A DNA stretch of 64,000 nucleotides from Escherichia coli (GTDB lineage: Bacteria > Pseudomonadota > Gammaproteobacteria > Enterobacterales > Enterobacteriaceae). The notes under the pieces were generated by a model that saw only the letters and a list, made by a program, of their open reading frames with translations, was not told where the DNA came from and ran no database searches. The position numbers and the translations under genes are program-made. Location of the stretch: NCBI RefSeq assembly GCF_017348835.2, contig NZ_CP071375.1. One strand, given 5' to 3'. Below, one piece after another: positions 2,858-38,875 of this stretch; the first letter of the stretch is position 1, and each line of letters starts with the position of its first letter.

Positions 2858-4060
2858 TCAGGACGACTTCGCTGCAATCAAATCCTGCGCACAAGCCCAT
2901 GCACTCGACCACGCCCACTGGAAGTTATAGCCCCCCAGCCAGCCGGTGACGTCCATCACTTCGCCGATGAAGTACAGCCCAGGCACTTTGCGCGCTTCCA
3001 TCGTCCGTGAAGAGAGTTCGTTGGTGTCCACGCCGCCGAGCGTCACTTCGGCAGTGCGATAGCCTTCAGTGCCGTTGGGTTGTACGCGCCAGTCGGTCAA
3101 TGTGCTAATCAGTGCCTGTTGGTCACGCACGTTGAGCTGTTTTAGCGAAACATCCGGGATTTGCCCGAGTTGCTGTAAGCGTTCAACCAACCGCTTCGGT
3201 AGATGAACCGCCAGTGTGTTTTTCAGGCTCTGATTCGGATGTGCGTTACGCTGCTCATTCAGGAAGGTTTCGAGGTCCACATCCGGTAGCAGATTGATAC
3301 TGACAAATTCACCCGGTTGCCAGTAGCTGGAAATCTGCAACACCGCCGGTCCAGATAAGCCGCGGTGGGTGAAGAGTAAGTTCTCTCGGAAAACGGTGCC
3401 GTTTTCAGCGGTAATCACGGAAAGCACCGCCACGCCCGCCAGCACCTGTAACTCTTCGAGCAACGGTTTATGCAGAGTGAATGGCACCAGACCCGCGCGG
3501 GTCGGCAGCACGTTGAGACCAAATTGTTCGGCAATCTTATAACCAAACGGCGACGCGCCCAGCCCCGGCATTGACAGCCCACCGGTCGCGATGACCAGCT
3601 TTTCGCAACCGACAGTCATGCCGTTCAGTTCAAGCGTGAAGCCTGTATCATCCTTCTCCACGCTCAGCACTTCGCTACGCAATCTGAAGGTCACATTGCC
3701 CTTCTCGCACTCATCCACCAGCATGTCGACAATCTGCTGCGCGGAGTCATCGCAGAAGAGTTGTCCTAACGTTTTCTCGTGCCAGGCGATGCCGTGTTTA
3801 TTGACCAGATCAATGAAATCCCACTGGGTAAAACGCGCAAGTGCAGACTTACAAAAATGCGGATTCTGGCTCAGATAAGCGCCCGGTTCGACATAAAGGT
3901 TGGTAAAGTTGCAGCGCCCACCGCCAGACATGAGGATTTTGCGCCCTGGTTTTTTACCATTATCGATCAGCAGAACCCGGCGTCCTGCCTGACCTGCCAG
4001 CGCAGAACAGAACATACCCGCCGCACCAGCGCCTATAATAATGGCATCAAACCTTTCCAC
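2858..4060 (-). CDS. yhiN: FAD-binding flavoprotein YhiN (HI0933-like family)
   Basis: 400-aa ORF starting MERFDAIIIGAGAAGMFC (Rossmann GxGxxG); synteny upstream of pitA. Confidence 0.85.
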   Translation of the reverse strand: MERFDAIIIGAGAAGMFCSALAGQAGRRVLLIDNGKKPGRKILMSGGGRCNFTNLYVEPGAYLSQNPHFCKSALARFTQWDFIDLVNKHGIAWHEKTLGQLFCDDSAQQIVDMLVDECEKGNVTFRLRSEVLSVEKDDTGFTLELNGMTVGCEKLVIATGGLSMPGLGASPFGYKIAEQFGLNVLPTRAGLVPFTLHKPLLEELQVLAGVAVLSVITAENGTVFRENLLFTHRGLSGPAVLQISSYWQPGEFVSINLLPDVDLETFLNEQRNAHPNQSLKNTLAVHLPKRLVERLQQLGQIPDVSLKQLNVRDQQALISTLTDWRVQPNGTEGYRTAEVTLGGVDTNELSSRTMEARKVPGLYFIGEVMDVTGWLGGYNFQWAWSSAWACAQDLIAAKSS

Positions 4061-4291
4061 GTTGCGCTCCTCTTAGAAAAAACGGGCGTGAATTGTAAAG
4101 ATTCCTCAGTGGTCGCACCAGCATCAATATTACTAAAAGGAAGTATTTGCCTGAATTATATAAGATAATTATTTTTTGAGTGAAATCCATACAGGAGGCA
4201 AATCAAAAAAAGTCTATATTTCACTTTGCCCGCGCCGCGAAAGTCACTGATAATGCGCCGCGTTCATGTCCTCAAAATGGCGTAACGTCCT

Positions 4292-5791
4292 ATGCTACAT
4301 TTGTTTGCTGGCCTGGATTTGCATACCGGGCTGTTATTATTGCTTGCACTGGCTTTTGTGCTGTTCTACGAAGCCATCAATGGTTTCCATGACACAGCCA
4401 ACGCCGTGGCAACCGTTATCTATACCCGCGCGATGCGTTCTCAGCTCGCCGTGGTTATGGCAGCGGTGTTCAACTTTTTGGGTGTTTTGCTGGGTGGTCT
4501 GAGTGTTGCCTATGCCATTGTGCATATGCTGCCGACGGATCTGCTGCTTAATATGGGATCGTCTCATGGCCTTGCCATGGTGTTCTCTATGTTGCTGGCG
4601 GCGATTATCTGGAACCTGGGTACCTGGTACTTTGGTTTGCCTGCATCCAGCTCTCATACGCTGATTGGCGCGATCATCGGGATTGGTTTAACCAATGCGT
4701 TGATGACCGGGACGTCAGTGGTGGATGCACTCAATATCCCGAAAGTATTAAGTATTTTCGGTTCTCTGATCGTTTCCCCTATTGTCGGCCTGGTGTTTGC
4801 TGGCGGTCTGATTTTCTTGCTGCGTCGCTACTGGAGCGGCACCAAGAAACGCGCCCGTATCCACCTGACCCCAGCGGAGCGTGAAAAGAAAGACGGCAAG
4901 AAAAAGCCGCCGTTCTGGACGCGTATCGCGCTGATCCTTTCCGCTATCGGCGTGGCGTTTTCGCACGGCGCGAACGATGGTCAGAAAGGCATTGGTCTGG
5001 TTATGTTGGTATTGATTGGTGTCGCACCAGCAGGCTTCGTGGTGAACATGAATGCCACTGGCTACGAAATCACCCGTACCCGTGATGCCATCAACAACGT
5101 CGAAGCTTACTTTGAGCAGCATCCTGCGCTGCTGAAACAAGCTACCGGTGCTGATCAGTTAGTACCGGCTCCGGAAGCTGGCGCAACGCAACCTGCGGAG
5201 TTCCATTGCCATCCGTCGAATACCATTAACGCGCTCAACCGCCTGAAAGGCATGTTGACTACCGATGTGGAAAGCTACGACAAGCTGTCGCTTGATCAAC
5301 GTAGCCAGATGCGCCGCATTATGCTGTGCGTTTCTGACACCATCGACAAAGTGGTGAAATTGCCTGGCGTAAATGCTGACGATCAGCGTCTGTTGAAGAA
5401 ACTGAAGTCCGATATGCTAAGTACCATCGAGTATGCTCCGGTGTGGATCATCATGGCGGTCGCGTTGGCGTTAGGTATCGGTACGATGATTGGCTGGCGT
5501 CGTGTGGCAACGACTATCGGTGAGAAAATCGGTAAGAAAGGCATGACCTACGCTCAGGGGATGTCTGCCCAGATGACGGCGGCAGTGTCTATCGGCCTGG
5601 CGAGTTATACCGGGATGCCGGTTTCCACTACTCACGTACTCTCCTCTTCTGTCGCGGGGACAATGGTGGTAGATGGTGGCGGCTTACAGCGTAAAACCGT
5701 GACCAGCATTCTGATGGCCTGGGTGTTTACCCTTCCGGCTGCGGTACTGCTTTCCGGCGGGCTGTACTGGCTCTCCTTGCAGTTCCTGTAA
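4292..5791 (+). CDS. pitA: low-affinity inorganic phosphate transporter PitA
   Basis: 499-aa polytopic membrane ORF; sequence and synteny match PitA. Confidence 0.9.
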
Positions 5792-5850: not shown

Positions 5851-5957
5851 TTTGTTCATGCCGGATGCGGCGTGAACGCCTTATCCGGCCTACAAAAACA
5901 TGCAAATTCAATAGATTGCAGAGATTATGTAGGCCTGATAAGCGTAGCGCATCAGGC
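5851..5957. repeat. REP/BIME palindromic units between pitA and uspB
   Basis: gccggatgcggcgtgaacgccttatccggcctac and gtaggcctgataagcgtagcgcatcaggc, typical E. coli REP sequences. Confidence 0.7.
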
Positions 5958-14302: not shown

Positions 14303-14309
14303 ATGTTAA

Positions 14310-14339
14310 AGGGCTAAGAGTAGTGTGCTCTTAGCCCTT
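14310..14339. terminator. bidirectional terminator between gor and dinQ
   Basis: gggctaagag...ctcttagccc palindrome immediately after the gor stop. Confidence 0.6.
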
Positions 14340-14355
14340 AATTACGTTTCCGCTA

Positions 14356-14439
14356 TCAGTTCAGAAGCTGAAGCAGAAAGCGGATCAGTTCCAGCAGCGC
14401 AATTAACGCCCCAAGAACGATGATTGCTTTATCAATCAC
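14356..14439 (-). CDS. dinQ: DinQ type I toxin peptide (27 aa, GTG start)
   Basis: Minus-strand translation gtg att gat aaa gca atc atc gtt ctt ggg gcg tta att gcg ctg ctg gaa ctg atc cgc ttt ctg ctt cag ctt ctg aac tga gives (M)IDKAIIVLGALIALLELIRFLLQLLN, matching recalled DinQ. Confidence 0.8.
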   Translation of the reverse strand: MIDKAIIVLGALIALLELIRFLLQLLN

Positions 14440-14632
14440 CCGTTTTCTCCATGCGATGGAGTGAGAATGCATCCGCTTACTCATCCACTGCCTGTCACGG
14501 CGCATGTCTCATTGTTAGATAAGAACTCTCTCACTCCGGCCAGAGCATCAGTTAACGGCACCACCCGTACTTCTGACCAGGACTTTGAAAGCGTTTATGC
14601 GCATTACCAGAGTGAAAATGCCTCAGAGCTAA

Positions 14633-14648
14633 CTGGATAATCATACAG
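14633..14648. promoter_or_regulatory. LexA box (CTG-N10-CAG) in the dinQ promoter
   Basis: ctggataatcatacag matches the SOS box consensus CTGT-N8-ACAG closely; located upstream of dinQ on its strand. Confidence 0.65.
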
Positions 14649-14677
14649 TACATTCAGGTTATAAAACCAGCATGTCC

Positions 14678-15773
14678 TGTGTAAGTTCACAGAGATATTG
14701 CAATTGCCTCCGGATAAGTAAGGGGAGATTGCACTATGCAAATGCAGCATCTGATGGTTGGCTATCCTAAGTACTACCAAACGGCCGATTATGCGTTGAG
14801 GCTTTCAGTGATGGCTGATATAGCAACAATGAGAATGAAGGCTCTGCACTTCTGGGATAAACACGGTATTTCTGCAGCTTCTGAAGCCTTTGGCGTGTCC
14901 TGCCGCACGCTTTACTGGTGGCGTCAGTTACTGAACAAGGAAGGACCTGAGGGGCTAATCCCGCACAGTAAGGCACCTCTGGTGCGACGAAAAAAACACT
15001 GGCATCCCGATGTGCTGAAAGAGATTCGACGCCTCAGGACAGAGCTGCCGAACCTCGGTAAAGAGCAGATTTTTGTTCGCCTGAAGCCCTGGTGCGAACA
15101 GCGCTATCTGGCCTGTCCGAGTGTTTCCACCATCGGCAGAATGATCGCTGCCGCACATGATAAAATGCGGATGATACCTGTGCGTCTGGGATCGCGGGGG
15201 AAGGCACTGCTTGTCAAAAAGCGGTCTGCCAAACCCCGCAGGCCAAAGCACTACCGCCCGGTAAAGACAGGTGAGCTCATTGGGATGGACGCCATTGAGC
15301 TCAGAATGGGCGAACTGCGTCGCTATGTCATCACCATGATCGACGAATGCAGCAATTACGCGCTGGCGCTGGCTGTGCCGTCACTCAACAGTGATATCGT
15401 CAATCACTTCTTCAGCCGCGCAGCCCGGTTGTTCCCGGTCGGTATCAGCCAGATAATCACAGATAACGGAAAAGAGTTCCTGGGAAACTTCGACAAAACG
15501 CTGCAGGAAGCCGCTATCAAACACCTCTGGACCTATCCCTACACGCCAAAAATGAACGCTATCTGTGAACGTTTTAACCGGACGTTAAGAGAGCAGTTTA
15601 TTGAATTTAATGAGATTTTACTCTTTGAAGATCTGGCGCTATTTAACCAGAAGCTGGCGGAATATCTGGTGCTGTATAACAGCAAAAGACCCCACAAGGC
15701 GCTCGCACTAATGACGCCCGTGGAATATATTTTAAAAGAGAATAAAAATTGCAATATGTGGTGGACCCATACA
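14678..15773 (+). mobile_element. insertion sequence, single-ORF DDE (rve) transposase, IS481-family-like, about 1.1 kb
   Basis: Imperfect ~28-bp terminal inverted repeats (left tgtgtaagttcacagagatattgcaatt; right reverse complement tgtatgggtccaccacatattgcaatt) flanked by a 5-bp direct repeat tgtcc (14673-14677 and 15774-15778). Boundaries are uncertain by a few bp. Confidence 0.6.
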
Positions 15774-15818
15774 TGTCCTTGCAATAGTTTCAGTATGGTA
15801 TTAGCATTGATGCGTTAG
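14736..15818 (+). CDS. DDE-type transposase (integrase core domain; N-terminal HTH)
   Basis: 360-aa ORF with HTH (GVSCRTLYWWRQ) and catalytic residues consistent with D (GMDAIE), D (ITDNGKEF) and E (ICERFNRTL) about 36 aa later; the ORF reads 45 nt past the inferred right end of the element. Confidence 0.7.
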   Translation: MQMQHLMVGYPKYYQTADYALRLSVMADIATMRMKALHFWDKHGISAASEAFGVSCRTLYWWRQLLNKEGPEGLIPHSKAPLVRRKKHWHPDVLKEIRRLRTELPNLGKEQIFVRLKPWCEQRYLACPSVSTIGRMIAAAHDKMRMIPVRLGSRGKALLVKKRSAKPRRPKHYRPVKTGELIGMDAIELRMGELRRYVITMIDECSNYALALAVPSLNSDIVNHFFSRAARLFPVGISQIITDNGKEFLGNFDKTLQEAAIKHLWTYPYTPKMNAICERFNRTLREQFIEFNEILLFEDLALFNQKLAEYLVLYNSKRPHKALALMTPVEYILKENKNCNMWWTHTCPCNSFSMVLALMR

Positions 15819-15895
15819 ATGATGGCATTCTCACTCCAGCCAGAGCCACCAACTCTGGGCTGCAAAGTAAAAAACCGACGCAAAGTCGGTTTTTT
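15812..15895 (+). ncRNA. agrA: agrA-like small RNA (repeat copy with intrinsic terminator)
   Basis: Shares the gttagat...ctcactccagccagagccaccaactc...aaaaaccgacgcaaagtcggttttttt core with the downstream copy; candidate -35 ttgcaa (15779-15784) and -10 tagcat (15802-15807) with 17-bp spacer. Confidence 0.6.
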
Positions 15896-16042
15896 TACAT
15901 CCGGATTCGGACAAGGCTTAATATGACGATGACCCAGTGAAAGTATATAAATCGTCACTGCGATATATACCGAAGTGCCCCCTCCGCCAGCTGAAGAAAT
16001 CGCTAATTCTTGCAATGTTAGCCACTGGCTAATAGTATTGAG

Positions 16043-16127
16043 CTGTTAGATAAGAGCTCTCTCACTCCAGCCAGAGCCACCAACTCAGGGCTGGAAAGTA
16101 AAAAACCGACGCAAAGTCGGTTTTTTT
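16043..16127 (+). ncRNA. agrB: agrB-like small RNA (antisense regulator of dinQ)
   Basis: Second tandem copy; -35 ttgcaa (16010-16015), 17-bp spacer, -10 tagtat (16033-16038); about 33 nt (gttagataagagctctctcactccagccagagc) complementary to the dinQ leader copy at about 14510-14542; ends in hairpin + T7. Confidence 0.65.
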
Positions 16128-16161
16128 ACGTCCTGATTCAGACCTCCTTTCAAATGAATAG

Positions 16162-16241: not shown

Positions 16242-16242
16242 T

Positions 16243-16292
16243 GGTTTGTAACGCTGGCTGCGCTGGCGCTACGTCTCTCTTTCACTTTGTAA
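16243..16292 (+). pseudogene. arsB: arsB 3'-terminal remnant (last ~16 codons, ...FVTLAALALRLSFTL*)
   Basis: In-frame reading of ggtttgtaacgctggctgcgctggcgctacgtctctctttcactttgtaa ends in a stop 12 nt before the arsC ATG, the expected arsB-arsC arrangement; no arsR or arsB body precedes it. Confidence 0.5.
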
Positions 16293-16304: not shown

Positions 16305-16730
16305 ATGAGCAACATTACCATTTATCACAACCCAGCCTGCGGCACATCGCGTAATACGCTGGAGATGATCCGCAACAGCGGTACAGAACCGACCATTATC
16401 CATTATCTGGAAACACCACCAACGCGCGATGAACTGGTAAAACTCATTGCCGATATGGGGATTACCGTACGCGCGCTGCTGCGTAAAAACGTCGAGCCGT
16501 ATGAGGAACTGGGCCTTGCGGAAGATAAATTTACTGACGAGCGGTTAATCGACTTTATGCTTCAGCACCCGATTCTGATTAACCGTCCGATTGTGGTGAC
16601 GCCGCTGGGAACTCGCCTATGCCGCCCCTCGGAAGTGGTGCTGGAAATTCTGCCAGATGCGCAAAAAGGCGCGTTCTCCAAGGAAGATGGCGAGAAAGTG
16701 GTTGATGAAGCGGGTAAGCGGTTGAAATAA
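16305..16730 (+). CDS. arsC: arsenate reductase (glutaredoxin-coupled ArsC)
   Basis: 141-aa ORF MSNITIYHNPACGTSRNTLEMIRNSG... with catalytic Cys12 context (HNPACGTSRN). Confidence 0.95.
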   Translation: MSNITIYHNPACGTSRNTLEMIRNSGTEPTIIHYLETPPTRDELVKLIADMGITVRALLRKNVEPYEELGLAEDKFTDERLIDFMLQHPILINRPIVVTPLGTRLCRPSEVVLEILPDAQKGAFSKEDGEKVVDEAGKRLK

Positions 16731-16778: not shown

Positions 16779-16880
16779 TGTCGGATGCGACGCTGGCGCG
16801 TCTTATCCGACCTACAAGGTTATGAAAATTCGATGAATTGTATGTTATTTGTAGGCCTGACAGGCGTAGCGCATCAGGCG
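16779..16880. repeat. REP/BIME palindromic units downstream of arsC
   Basis: tgtcggatgcgacgctggcgcgtcttatccgacctaca and tgtaggcctgacaggcgtagcgcatcaggcg. Confidence 0.7.
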
Positions 16881-32783: not shown

Positions 32784-33121
32784 TCAGGACATAAGCAACT
32801 GAAATTGATGGCTGGCATGACGAGGGATGCAGATGCTGATTTCATTACCCCCGGTGATTACTAAAGGAGAGGCTAAAACGACTTTATTCCCCTGGTATGT
32901 GTATCCACCAGTAGAACCCTTCGTTGCCCGAATGCTGGCAGGAACTGTTGGCAGAACGGCAACATTTTTTTTGTCGTTGACCTCACCATGTCGATCACTA
33001 TGCCTGTATCCCACCTTACTGGCTGACAACCCCACTATGCCGCTGGTCTGTAAATCCCTCATATCTCTCCTCGCGCGCAATTTAAAGAACCGTTATTTCT
33101 CAAGAATTTTCAGGGACTAAA

Positions 33122-38508: not shown

Positions 38509-38753
38509 GATTATCCCTTATATTTCATACTGCGATTATTTCAATTTCAGTATACTAATGAAATGATGCCAGACTGTTTCTTAGCGCAAAAACTGCCAGA
38601 TTTGGTAGGACCAAAATTTATCCACAAAGTAGTTTTGCATAACAGTTAATTGATAATAAGTAAATGCAACACGAATATATTTTCGCACAGCGTATAGCTT
38701 ATGTTTATAAAAAAATGGCTGATCTTATTTCCAGTAAAAGTTATATTTAACTT

Positions 38754-38859
38754 ACTGAGAGCACAAAGTTTCCCGTGCCAACAGGGAGTGTTATAACGGT
38801 TTATTAGTCTGGAGACGGCAGACTATCCTCTTCCCGGTCCCCTATGCCGGGTTTTTTTT
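38754..38859 (+). ncRNA. gadY: GadY small RNA (overlaps gadX 3' UTR, opposite strand)
   Basis: actgagagcacaaagtttcccgtgccaacagggagtg... ending in cccggtcccctatgccggg + T8 matches recalled gadY; 5' end approximate. Confidence 0.6.
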
Positions 38860-38875
38860 ATGTCTGAGTAAAATT

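Follow-up and report, generated by a model that had tools for sequence, protein, structure and literature searches.

A chromosomal dinQ-agrAB toxin-antitoxin locus of Escherichia coli split by an IS481-family element, and a possible preference of this element group for antitoxin-RNA promoters

Positions 14,356 to 16,127 of the 64,000-nucleotide stretch of Escherichia coli DNA analysed here (the window) very probably hold the chromosomal dinQ-agrAB type I toxin-antitoxin (TA) system of E. coli, split in this strain by an insertion sequence (IS) of the IS481 family. We identify dinQ, agrA and agrB from their genomic position, the protein family, the RNA family, the computed antisense complementarity and the exact mapping of published landmarks of the dinQ mRNA. 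This assignment adds nothing new. The system is already known (Weel-Sneve 2013; Kristiansen 2016) and dinQ is already in the RefSeq annotation here; the value lies in that small peptide and small RNA (sRNA) genes, missed by open reading frame (ORF) tracks, are recoverable by a first reading. The only part that might be new is the splitting IS together with its apparent homing to the -35 edge of antitoxin-RNA promoters. This IS group seems to prefer sites where its right end meets the -35 TTG of a promoter that drives a small constitutive RNA, most of all a type I antitoxin RNA.

In a sequence search of complete E. coli genomes, the region matches the chromosome of strain PE164 at 100%. The RefSeq annotation across the matched PE164 region reads gorA, dinQ, “IS481 family transposase” and arsC. 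Along the window, gor is on the left, dinQ, agrA and agrB are in the gor–ars intergenic stretch and ars is on the right, in synteny with K-12. The dinQ–agrAB repeats are kept in nearly all E. coli genomes, as seen by genome search. The dinQ gene and its control elements lie as follows.

14356..14439, minus strand: dinQ coding sequence, 27 codons, GTG start at 14439-14437, encoding the hydrophobic peptide MIDKAIIVLGALIALLELIRFLLQLLN
14305..14633, minus strand: dinQ primary transcript, about 330 nt, with +1 at G 14633 and +44 at 14590; its 3' end is approximate
14450-14447, minus strand: dinQ Shine-Dalgarno (SD) sequence, GGAG
14618-14606, 14540-14528, 14467-14456 and 14452-14447, minus strand: dinQ leader switch elements 1, 2, 3 and 4, respectively
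14645-14640, minus strand: presumed dinQ -10, TATGAT, placed from the +1 position
14631..14650, minus strand: predicted LexA operator 1, TACTGTATGATTATCCAGTT, overlapping the dinQ -10 and +1
14653..14672, minus strand: CTG-N10-CTG, probably the second LexA operator, a weak one, which overlaps the region of the dinQ -35; its exact position is presumptive

The 27 codons of dinQ are the last 27 of a listed 49-aminoacid minus-strand ORF (14356–14505). The first-pass annotation, made from the letters alone, had read a GTG-initiated ORF of this length as DinQ, and it is found at 14356-14439 on the minus strand. The peptide matches NCBIfam toxin_DinQ with 54 bits (E 1.4e-14; cutoff 30), RefSeq calls the gene dinQ, and one protein accession, WP_001295215.1, is common to the window genome and K-12 DH5alpha (RefSeq). 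A CTG-N10-CAG LexA box had also been proposed. It is present at 14633-14648, inside the 20-mer 14631-14650, and has no single-nucleotide polymorphism (SNP) when compared to K-12. Two LexA operators close together, with heterology indices of 4.83 and 13.82, are described for dinQ (PMC3567139).

As for the leader, the K-12 mRNA has element 1 at U16–C28, element 2 at G94–G106, element 3 at U167–U178, element 4 at A182–G187 and the SD at G184–G187 (PMC5066626), with the AgrB site at G88–A119 (PMC5066626). We set the dinQ +1 at G14633 by anchoring the published SD (PMC5066626) on GGAG 14450–14447. With the SD anchored, elements 1-4, the GUG at +195 and the AgrB site (14546–14515) all coincide with the published positions. 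Pairing energies are -18.3 kcal/mol for elements 1:2, -16.9 for 2:3 and -6.9 for 3:4. Minimum-free-energy folds place the 1:2 pairing in the +1 form and the 2:3 pairing in the +44 form, a difference that is the published one. In K-12, five dinQ transcripts are made and translation occurs from the +44 form only (PMC3567139).

Between the gor/dinQ terminator and the insertion site (14303–14678), the window differs from K-12 by five SNPs. These are located in the terminator, in the coding sequence, in element 1 (C28U), in the probable second LexA operator (at 14654, outside the CTG cores) and in the target 6-mer. The C28U change retains pairing as a GU wobble and the rest of the dinQ leader is identical. 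The coding SNP is synonymous, since the DinQ protein is identical to that of K-12. The agr RNAs carry five SNPs in agrA and one in agrB, a G for A that leaves a GU pair. In short, the named elements are identical to K-12 save the C28U wobble, the one change in the second LexA box and these few agr substitutions.

The antitoxin side of the locus is on the opposite strand.

14513..14546, plus strand: third copy of the core repeat, which as reverse complement gives the target of AgrB in the dinQ 5' untranslated region (G88-A119, 14546-14515)
15779..15807, plus strand: agrA promoter, TTGCAA (15779-15784), 17-nt spacer, TAGCAT (15802-15807)
15815..15898, plus strand: agrA sRNA, full-length match to Rfam AgrB (RF02891), 100.3 bits; a stem-loop and an intrinsic terminator follow the antisense 5' part
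16010..16038, plus strand: probable agrB promoter, TTGCAA, 17-nt spacer, TAGTAT, read from the sequence by analogy with agrA
16046..16129, plus strand: agrB sRNA, full-length match to Rfam AgrB (RF02891), 108.1 bits; the functional antitoxin in K-12

Both units are part of a tandem direct repeat of 114 nt (15799-15912 and 16030-16143), 87% identical and with a period of 231. The gathering score of RF02891 is 40. At their 3' ends, the units have a CCGAC/GUCGG hairpin followed by a U-run (-14.8 and -14.7 kcal/mol). In K-12, agrA and agrB are reported to have consensus-like promoters and identical start sequences (PMC3567139).

A 34-nt core is found in three same-strand copies, at 14513–14546, 15813–15846 and 16044–16077. 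The DNA repeats share a strand while dinQ is read from minus and the agr genes from plus, and the agrA and agrB transcripts are therefore complementary to the dinQ leader. This strand reasoning was already in the first-pass annotation and is correct. The third copy that it had seen at 14510-14542 does exist on that strand, 3-4 nt away from there, at 14513-14546. Pairwise comparison of the copies, which it had suggested, gives 32/34 identity between the dinQ-leader core and the agrB copy, and 26/34 for the agrA copy. The first 32 nt of agrB form 30 Watson-Crick and 1 GU pairs with the dinQ target; for agrA these are 25 and 4. The core-target duplex reaches -58.2 kcal/mol for agrB (z = -11.8) and -45.2 for agrA (z = -8.2), z-scores being relative to 1000 shuffles at about -16 +/- 3.5 kcal/mol. 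The complementarity of agrB to the dinQ leader, which was to be checked by duplex prediction, is thus confirmed. Energies from full-length RNAduplex runs were discarded because long interior loops inflate them, with shuffles down to -62 kcal/mol. In K-12, the antisense complementarity spans 31 nt, with 30/31 for agrB and 25/31 for agrA (Weel-Sneve et al., PMC3567139).

The two RNAs had been treated as equivalent. This does not hold in K-12, where only agrB represses DinQ translation (PMC5066626): closure of the SD hairpin is restored, and the +44 dinQ mRNA is kept from being translated, by AgrB and not by AgrA (PMC5066626).

In agrA, 14 nt at 15825-15838 (GCATTCTCACTCCA) are the same as the part of the dinQ mRNA that holds leader element 3 (14457-14470), which makes a perfect 14-nt inverted repeat in the DNA. 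The match is due to strain-specific changes at 15827-15828; the agrA of K-12 has GCTATCTC. An AgrA of this sequence would be a rival of element 3 in pairing with element 2. The number of agr copies differs among strains, with a single unit in some (377323_2f and FWSEC0007 were compared), with or without arsRB.

The locus would work as follows. LexA would repress dinQ, and DNA damage would lead to the dinQ mRNA of about 330 nt. This primary mRNA would be translationally inert, with its SD locked in hairpin 3:4. Loss of the first 43 nt would let element 2 pair with element 3, opening the SD for translation of DinQ from the GUG. The product would be a 27-aminoacid inner-membrane toxin. AgrB, expected to be constitutive and made from the opposite strand, would pair in trans with nt 88-119 of the dinQ leader, leading to re-closing of the SD hairpin and to RNase III cleavage. 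AgrA would be a diverged tandem duplicate that pairs more poorly. These regulatory steps are known from the K-12 literature, and for this strain we infer them from the conservation of every sequence element. DinQ toxicity and AgrB repression in vivo are shown for K-12 only (PMC3567139, PMC5066626). The system is probably still functional in this strain, since the insertion leaves agrB unaffected and AgrB works in trans.

The insertion accounts for most of the region. It had been overlooked in the first-pass annotation, which called all of 14356-16127 a type I TA locus; that identity is supported, with 1095 of the 1772 bases (62%) being IS. A deletion of arsR-arsB next to it, described below, was overlooked as well.

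14679..15773, plus strand: IS481-family element of the ISKpn28 group, 1095 bp, ends GTGTAAG...CATACA; not in K-12
14673..14678: TGTCCT, target-site duplication on the left of the IS
15774..15779: TGTCCT, the same duplication on the right of the IS; the agrA -35 hexamer begins with its last T
14736..15818, plus strand: transposase ORF, 360 aminoacids, with a helix-turn-helix (HTH) and Pfam rve and rve_3 domains; “IS481 family transposase” in RefSeq

The alignment with K-12, which represents the empty site, stops at 14678/14679 and restarts at 15772. The IS sits in the 81-bp divergent promoter region, at dinQ -46 just past LexA box 2; on its other side, 5 bp separate it from the agrA -35 hexamer. 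It interrupts neither LexA box, none of the core promoters and none of the genes dinQ, agrA and agrB. An inner inverted-repeat core, ATATTGCAATT, is found 17-27 nt from each tip of the IS; the repeats are imperfect and share a core of 11 nt. Nucleotide identity to copies annotated as ISKpn28 is about 75%. Pfam rve and rve_3 score above their cutoffs in the transposase, while LZ_Tnp_IS481 is weak. No convincing -35/-10 pair pointing outward from the IS ends toward dinQ or agrA was found when the sequence was read by eye, and this idea was dropped.

The transposase has no stop codon inside the IS. Its ORF crosses the agrA promoter and ends at a TAG (15816-15818) that corresponds to agrA +2 to +4. 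The flank supplies the stop, so that annotated lengths differ by site and some copies are called pseudogenes. Where the -35 at the target reads TTGA, an immediate TGA stop gives a 348-aminoacid transposase (hokA and dinQ-like sites). The CTAG target of IS481 has been linked in a similar way to its transposase stop codon.

At the dinQ/agrA junction, the IS is present in 7 of 5426 complete E. coli genomes. Copies that are 100% identical and full-length were found in many E. coli genomes, and seventeen copies of the element were retrieved. The mobility of the element is seen in identical copies at no fewer than seven (at least 7) unrelated sites, in the empty K-12 site and in independent hits on one site. 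A matching 6-bp duplication is present at 18 checked sites, window included, by our own count.

Six of the sites with a 100%-identical IS are next to type I toxin genes. These are dinQ (window), hokA (PE164 and B4103-1), a dinQ-like gene (E2348/69), the ldr cluster (ldrD) near bcsG, hokD (prophages) and ldrA near kdsA/chaA. The orientation is the same in all six: the toxin is left of the IS, on the opposite strand. A 97.6%-identical copy is also at a hokD site in ETEC4067. At all these toxin-gene sites, the right end of the IS abuts the -35 TTG of the antitoxin-RNA promoter. Where the neighbour is hok or ldr, the IS precedes the start codon of the toxin by 13–16 nt; in the PE164 hokA locus (176011-180103), between cspA and glyS, this distance is 16 nt. 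Rfam matches to rdlD and to AgrB-like RNAs start 40–41 nt past the IS end, those to sok start at the IS end, and in the window agrA starts 41 nt past it. Copies of ISKpn28-like elements (75% identity) have the same placement by Hok ORFs, 14 nt upstream of the hok start codons and with the duplication TCTCCT.

A metagenome scan with the terminal 20-mer added 120 loci, which pooled with the E. coli loci give 62 distinct right flanks. The TTG is exactly at the junction in 37 of the 62, against 1.7% expected (binomial p about 1e-46). Furthermore, the best -10-like hexamer score at 16–18 nt has a mean of 4.65, compared to 2.49 in 2137 control TTGs (p = 3e-20). A hok/sok signature is present in 17/62 flanks. 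Three more flank clusters lie upstream of Rfam STnc100 (RF02076), and the one STnc100 contig examined (L025, 56-1400) has a prophage holin (Phage_holin_3_3) and a GH108 endolysin downstream. In L025, L031 and L110, the IS borders the -35 of a promoter ahead of STnc100. This suggests that STnc100 may be a late-promoter leader RNA and a further target class. A separate scan of genome contigs for the IS right end gave two matches, both in metagenome-assembled genomes, one of them in a hokD-type flank cluster. At five non-TA sites (L005, L016, L022, L110 and L128), no convincing toxin was found among the unannotated ORFs.

The seven genomes with the dinQ-site insertion have different flanks and one or two agr copies, and vary in arsRB content. 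Strain IAL7255 has the same IS at the same nucleotide, with both duplication copies reading CGTCCT, versus TGTCCT on both sides in the window. A local allele in both duplication copies around an identical IS implies that this dinQ/agrA nucleotide was hit at least twice independently. IAL7255 carries 37-38 copies of the IS.

These results hint at a promoter-homing IS. The ISKpn28 group would insert with single-nucleotide registration at the upstream -35 edge (NNNNNT|TG) of strong constitutive promoters of short, terminated RNAs. Whether this behaviour is real and undescribed is, in our judgement, evenly poised. The targets would be the antitoxin RNAs of three unrelated type I TA families (Sok, Rdl and AgrA/Agr-like), plus the STnc100 leader RNA upstream of a prophage holin-endolysin cassette. 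The dinQ/agrA insertion would then be one instance of a recurrently hit hot spot. One may speculate that the terminator of the target also serves the transposase gene. As for the route, the element may be recruited to RNA polymerase–promoter complexes at very active small-RNA promoters, or may recognise a TTGC(AAT)-like word. The -10 hexamer enrichment favours recruitment to the RNA polymerase–promoter complex, and the excess of C at the fourth position (22/37, own count) is compatible with recognition of a DNA word. Full-text literature searches for a link of IS481 or ISKpn28 to type I toxins, or to hok, sok or ldr, brought up no account of this target preference, although coverage was incomplete and an earlier description is possible. 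PMC12859917, which came up as a prior link, was a false lead that had matched “Hokkaido” and IS481EU. A recent preprint surveying Hok mentions IS genes near hok in general terms only.

Several points weigh against this picture of the locus and of the element. The consensus promoter and terminator scan flagged no agr promoter or terminator; the promoters are weak sigma-70 matches (8/12 consensus positions, own count on the sequence), and the scanner may have missed the terminators because A/U pairs would be absorbed into the stem. For the two tandem sRNA units of the earlier claim, each with its own -35/-10 and terminator, we relied on the Rfam matches, the folds and published start sites in place of the scan, and all the claimed elements are present. 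The sequence swapped upstream of dinQ -46 and of the agrA -35 could alter the activity of either promoter, and read-through from the transposase gene could yield a 5'-extended agrA. Regarding the element, the transposase scores 221.4 bits (E 1.7e-65) against NCBIfam transpos_IS481 (NF033577), below the cutoff of 224. No TTG is at the junction in 25/62 flanks. Among these, at least one cluster is without a matching duplication and several run into another sequence, which gives them a rearranged look; several others (e.g. L016 and L044) keep an intact duplication and do not look rearranged. Homology links many of the hok/sok flanks with each other, and the metagenome matches mix two IS lineages that are 75% identical. 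Finally, ISKpn28 inserts elsewhere too, as inside mgrB under colistin selection (PMC6101004). ISKpn28 is listed as mostly intergenic, in 59% of its distinct and 81% of its total sites (Adams et al. 2016).

Other explanations of the locus were considered. The empty scan at the agr units would fit 34-nt repeats that are generic or due to chance, with tandem units that are not antisense regulators. We give this practically no weight, as the covariance matches are 60-68 bits over the gathering score, the duplex z-scores are -8 to -12 and almost all E. coli genomes have kept the repeats; Northern, primer-extension, SHAPE (selective 2'-hydroxyl acylation analysed by primer extension) and translation data exist from K-12 (PMC3567139, PMC5066626). 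As far as sequence and literature can, these refute it. It is also unlikely, though less so, that the locus is a decayed remnant in which the IS silenced or deregulated dinQ and/or agrA, the TA system no longer being K-12-like. The IS does lie at dinQ -46 and directly against the agrA -35, and at the hok and ldr loci it comes between the coding sequence of the toxin and the promoter and leader that belong to it, so that these toxins must be inactive. The hok loci of K-12 are reportedly inactivated by nearby IS elements. Unlike in hok and ldr, however, the insertion at the dinQ site is outside the dinQ transcript, leaving the -10, +1, LexA boxes, leader, SD and coding sequence intact. The DinQ protein is identical to that of K-12, and agrB, the functional antitoxin, is untouched 270 bp off with its own promoter.

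The position of the IS could instead be an accident of descent, a single neutral inherited insertion with no target preference. There are only 7 genomes with it, and the 161-bp left junction is 100% identical between two strains from pigs, PE164 and F2_81. We consider a single inherited insertion very improbable. Against it, the seven genomes are unlike in flanks, in agr copy number and in whether arsRB is there; in two haplotypes, the duplicated 6-mer on each side of the identical IS has the local allele; and the same geometry is found at unrelated loci. We regard as a possible, if rather doubtful, alternative that the IS prefers a DNA word of about YYTSYT|TGC, like its own core TTGCAAT, that antitoxin promoters merely contain; neither promoter function nor RNA polymerase would then play a role. 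The base after the TTG at the junction would be part of this word, being the C already counted in 22 of the 37 TTG sites, and the agrA site TTGCAAT is identical to the inverted-repeat core. Yet -10-like hexamers at 17 +/- 1 nt extend beyond the hok/sok family (about 13/20 sites versus 5% of control TTGs, own count), the sites are real promoters of Rfam-recognised RNAs and the duplicated 6-mer is poorly conserved.

If promoter homing is true, a DDE transposon inserting at a fixed position relative to a promoter -35 would be unusual in bacteria. The closest analogy to promoter-registered integration is the eukaryotic Ty3 at Pol III start sites. Insertions at hok and ldr would be a recurrent route to inactivate or uncouple type I toxins while the antitoxins are spared. 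ISKpn28 is common on Klebsiella and E. coli plasmids maintained by hok/sok, which gives the finding relevance to plasmid stability and persistence.

The surroundings of the locus contain further features.

14302: end of gor
14309..14339: perfect 12-bp inverted repeat in the gor–dinQ gap, found by inverted-repeat search; gor terminator on the plus strand and dinQ terminator on the minus strand
16242..16243: junction of a 1686-bp deletion relative to K-12, with arsR and most of arsB gone, found by alignment with K-12
16305-16730: arsC, directly after agrB through the arsR–arsB deletion

The terminator scan called the 14309..14339 repeat on the plus strand, and its minus-strand fold has -19.0 kcal/mol. 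The deleted segment corresponds to 3839-5524 of the K-12 fragment used for comparison, and the junction is common to other E. coli lineages. Elsewhere in the window, REP-like palindromes at 16779-16811 (downstream of arsC) and 5896-5936 have sub-threshold or marginal Rfam matches to naRNA4 and ES036. Rfam also places the GadY sRNA at 38751-38864, the ES205 sRNA at 32901-32972 and the chuA/shuA 5' untranslated region thermometer at 23197-23228. These fit the acid-fitness island and chu haem-uptake neighbourhood.

In terms of likeness to known systems, IS150 and IS186 at hokA, hokC and hokE of K-12 resemble the window IS in being close to, and not inside, type I toxin ORFs. They differ from it in belonging to other IS families. 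Presumably, the hokA locus, with the IS481-family element in PE164, has IS150 in K-12. We know of no report of a precise registration of IS150 or IS186 with an antitoxin -35 at hok loci.

ISKpn28 is closer. It resembles the window IS in its size of about 1.1 kb, its single DDE (rve) transposase with an N-terminal HTH, its identical terminal 20-mer and its inner inverted-repeat core, ATATTGCAATT/AATTGCAATAT (PMC6101004). The ISKpn28 literature deals with mgrB disruption (PMC6101004) and plasmid distribution. The window IS is a distinct E. coli lineage, 25% diverged.

As for the TA system, tisB/istR-1 is described as similar to dinQ in three respects (PMC3567139). It is an SOS (LexA)-controlled type I toxin with a small inner-membrane peptide, its inert primary mRNA is activated by 5' processing, and a divergent antitoxin RNA pairs with the leader and not with the ribosome-binding site (PMC3567139). 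It differs from dinQ in having an unrelated sequence and a single functional antitoxin RNA, not a tandem pair, and we claim no membership. The nearest relative is the dinQ-agrAB locus of K-12 itself (PMC3567139, PMC5066626), which has the same gor-ars site, an identical DinQ and LexA operator 1, tandem agrA/agrB and the same target at nt 88-119. From this, the window locus differs by the 1095-bp IS between dinQ and agrA and by the deletion of arsR and arsB.

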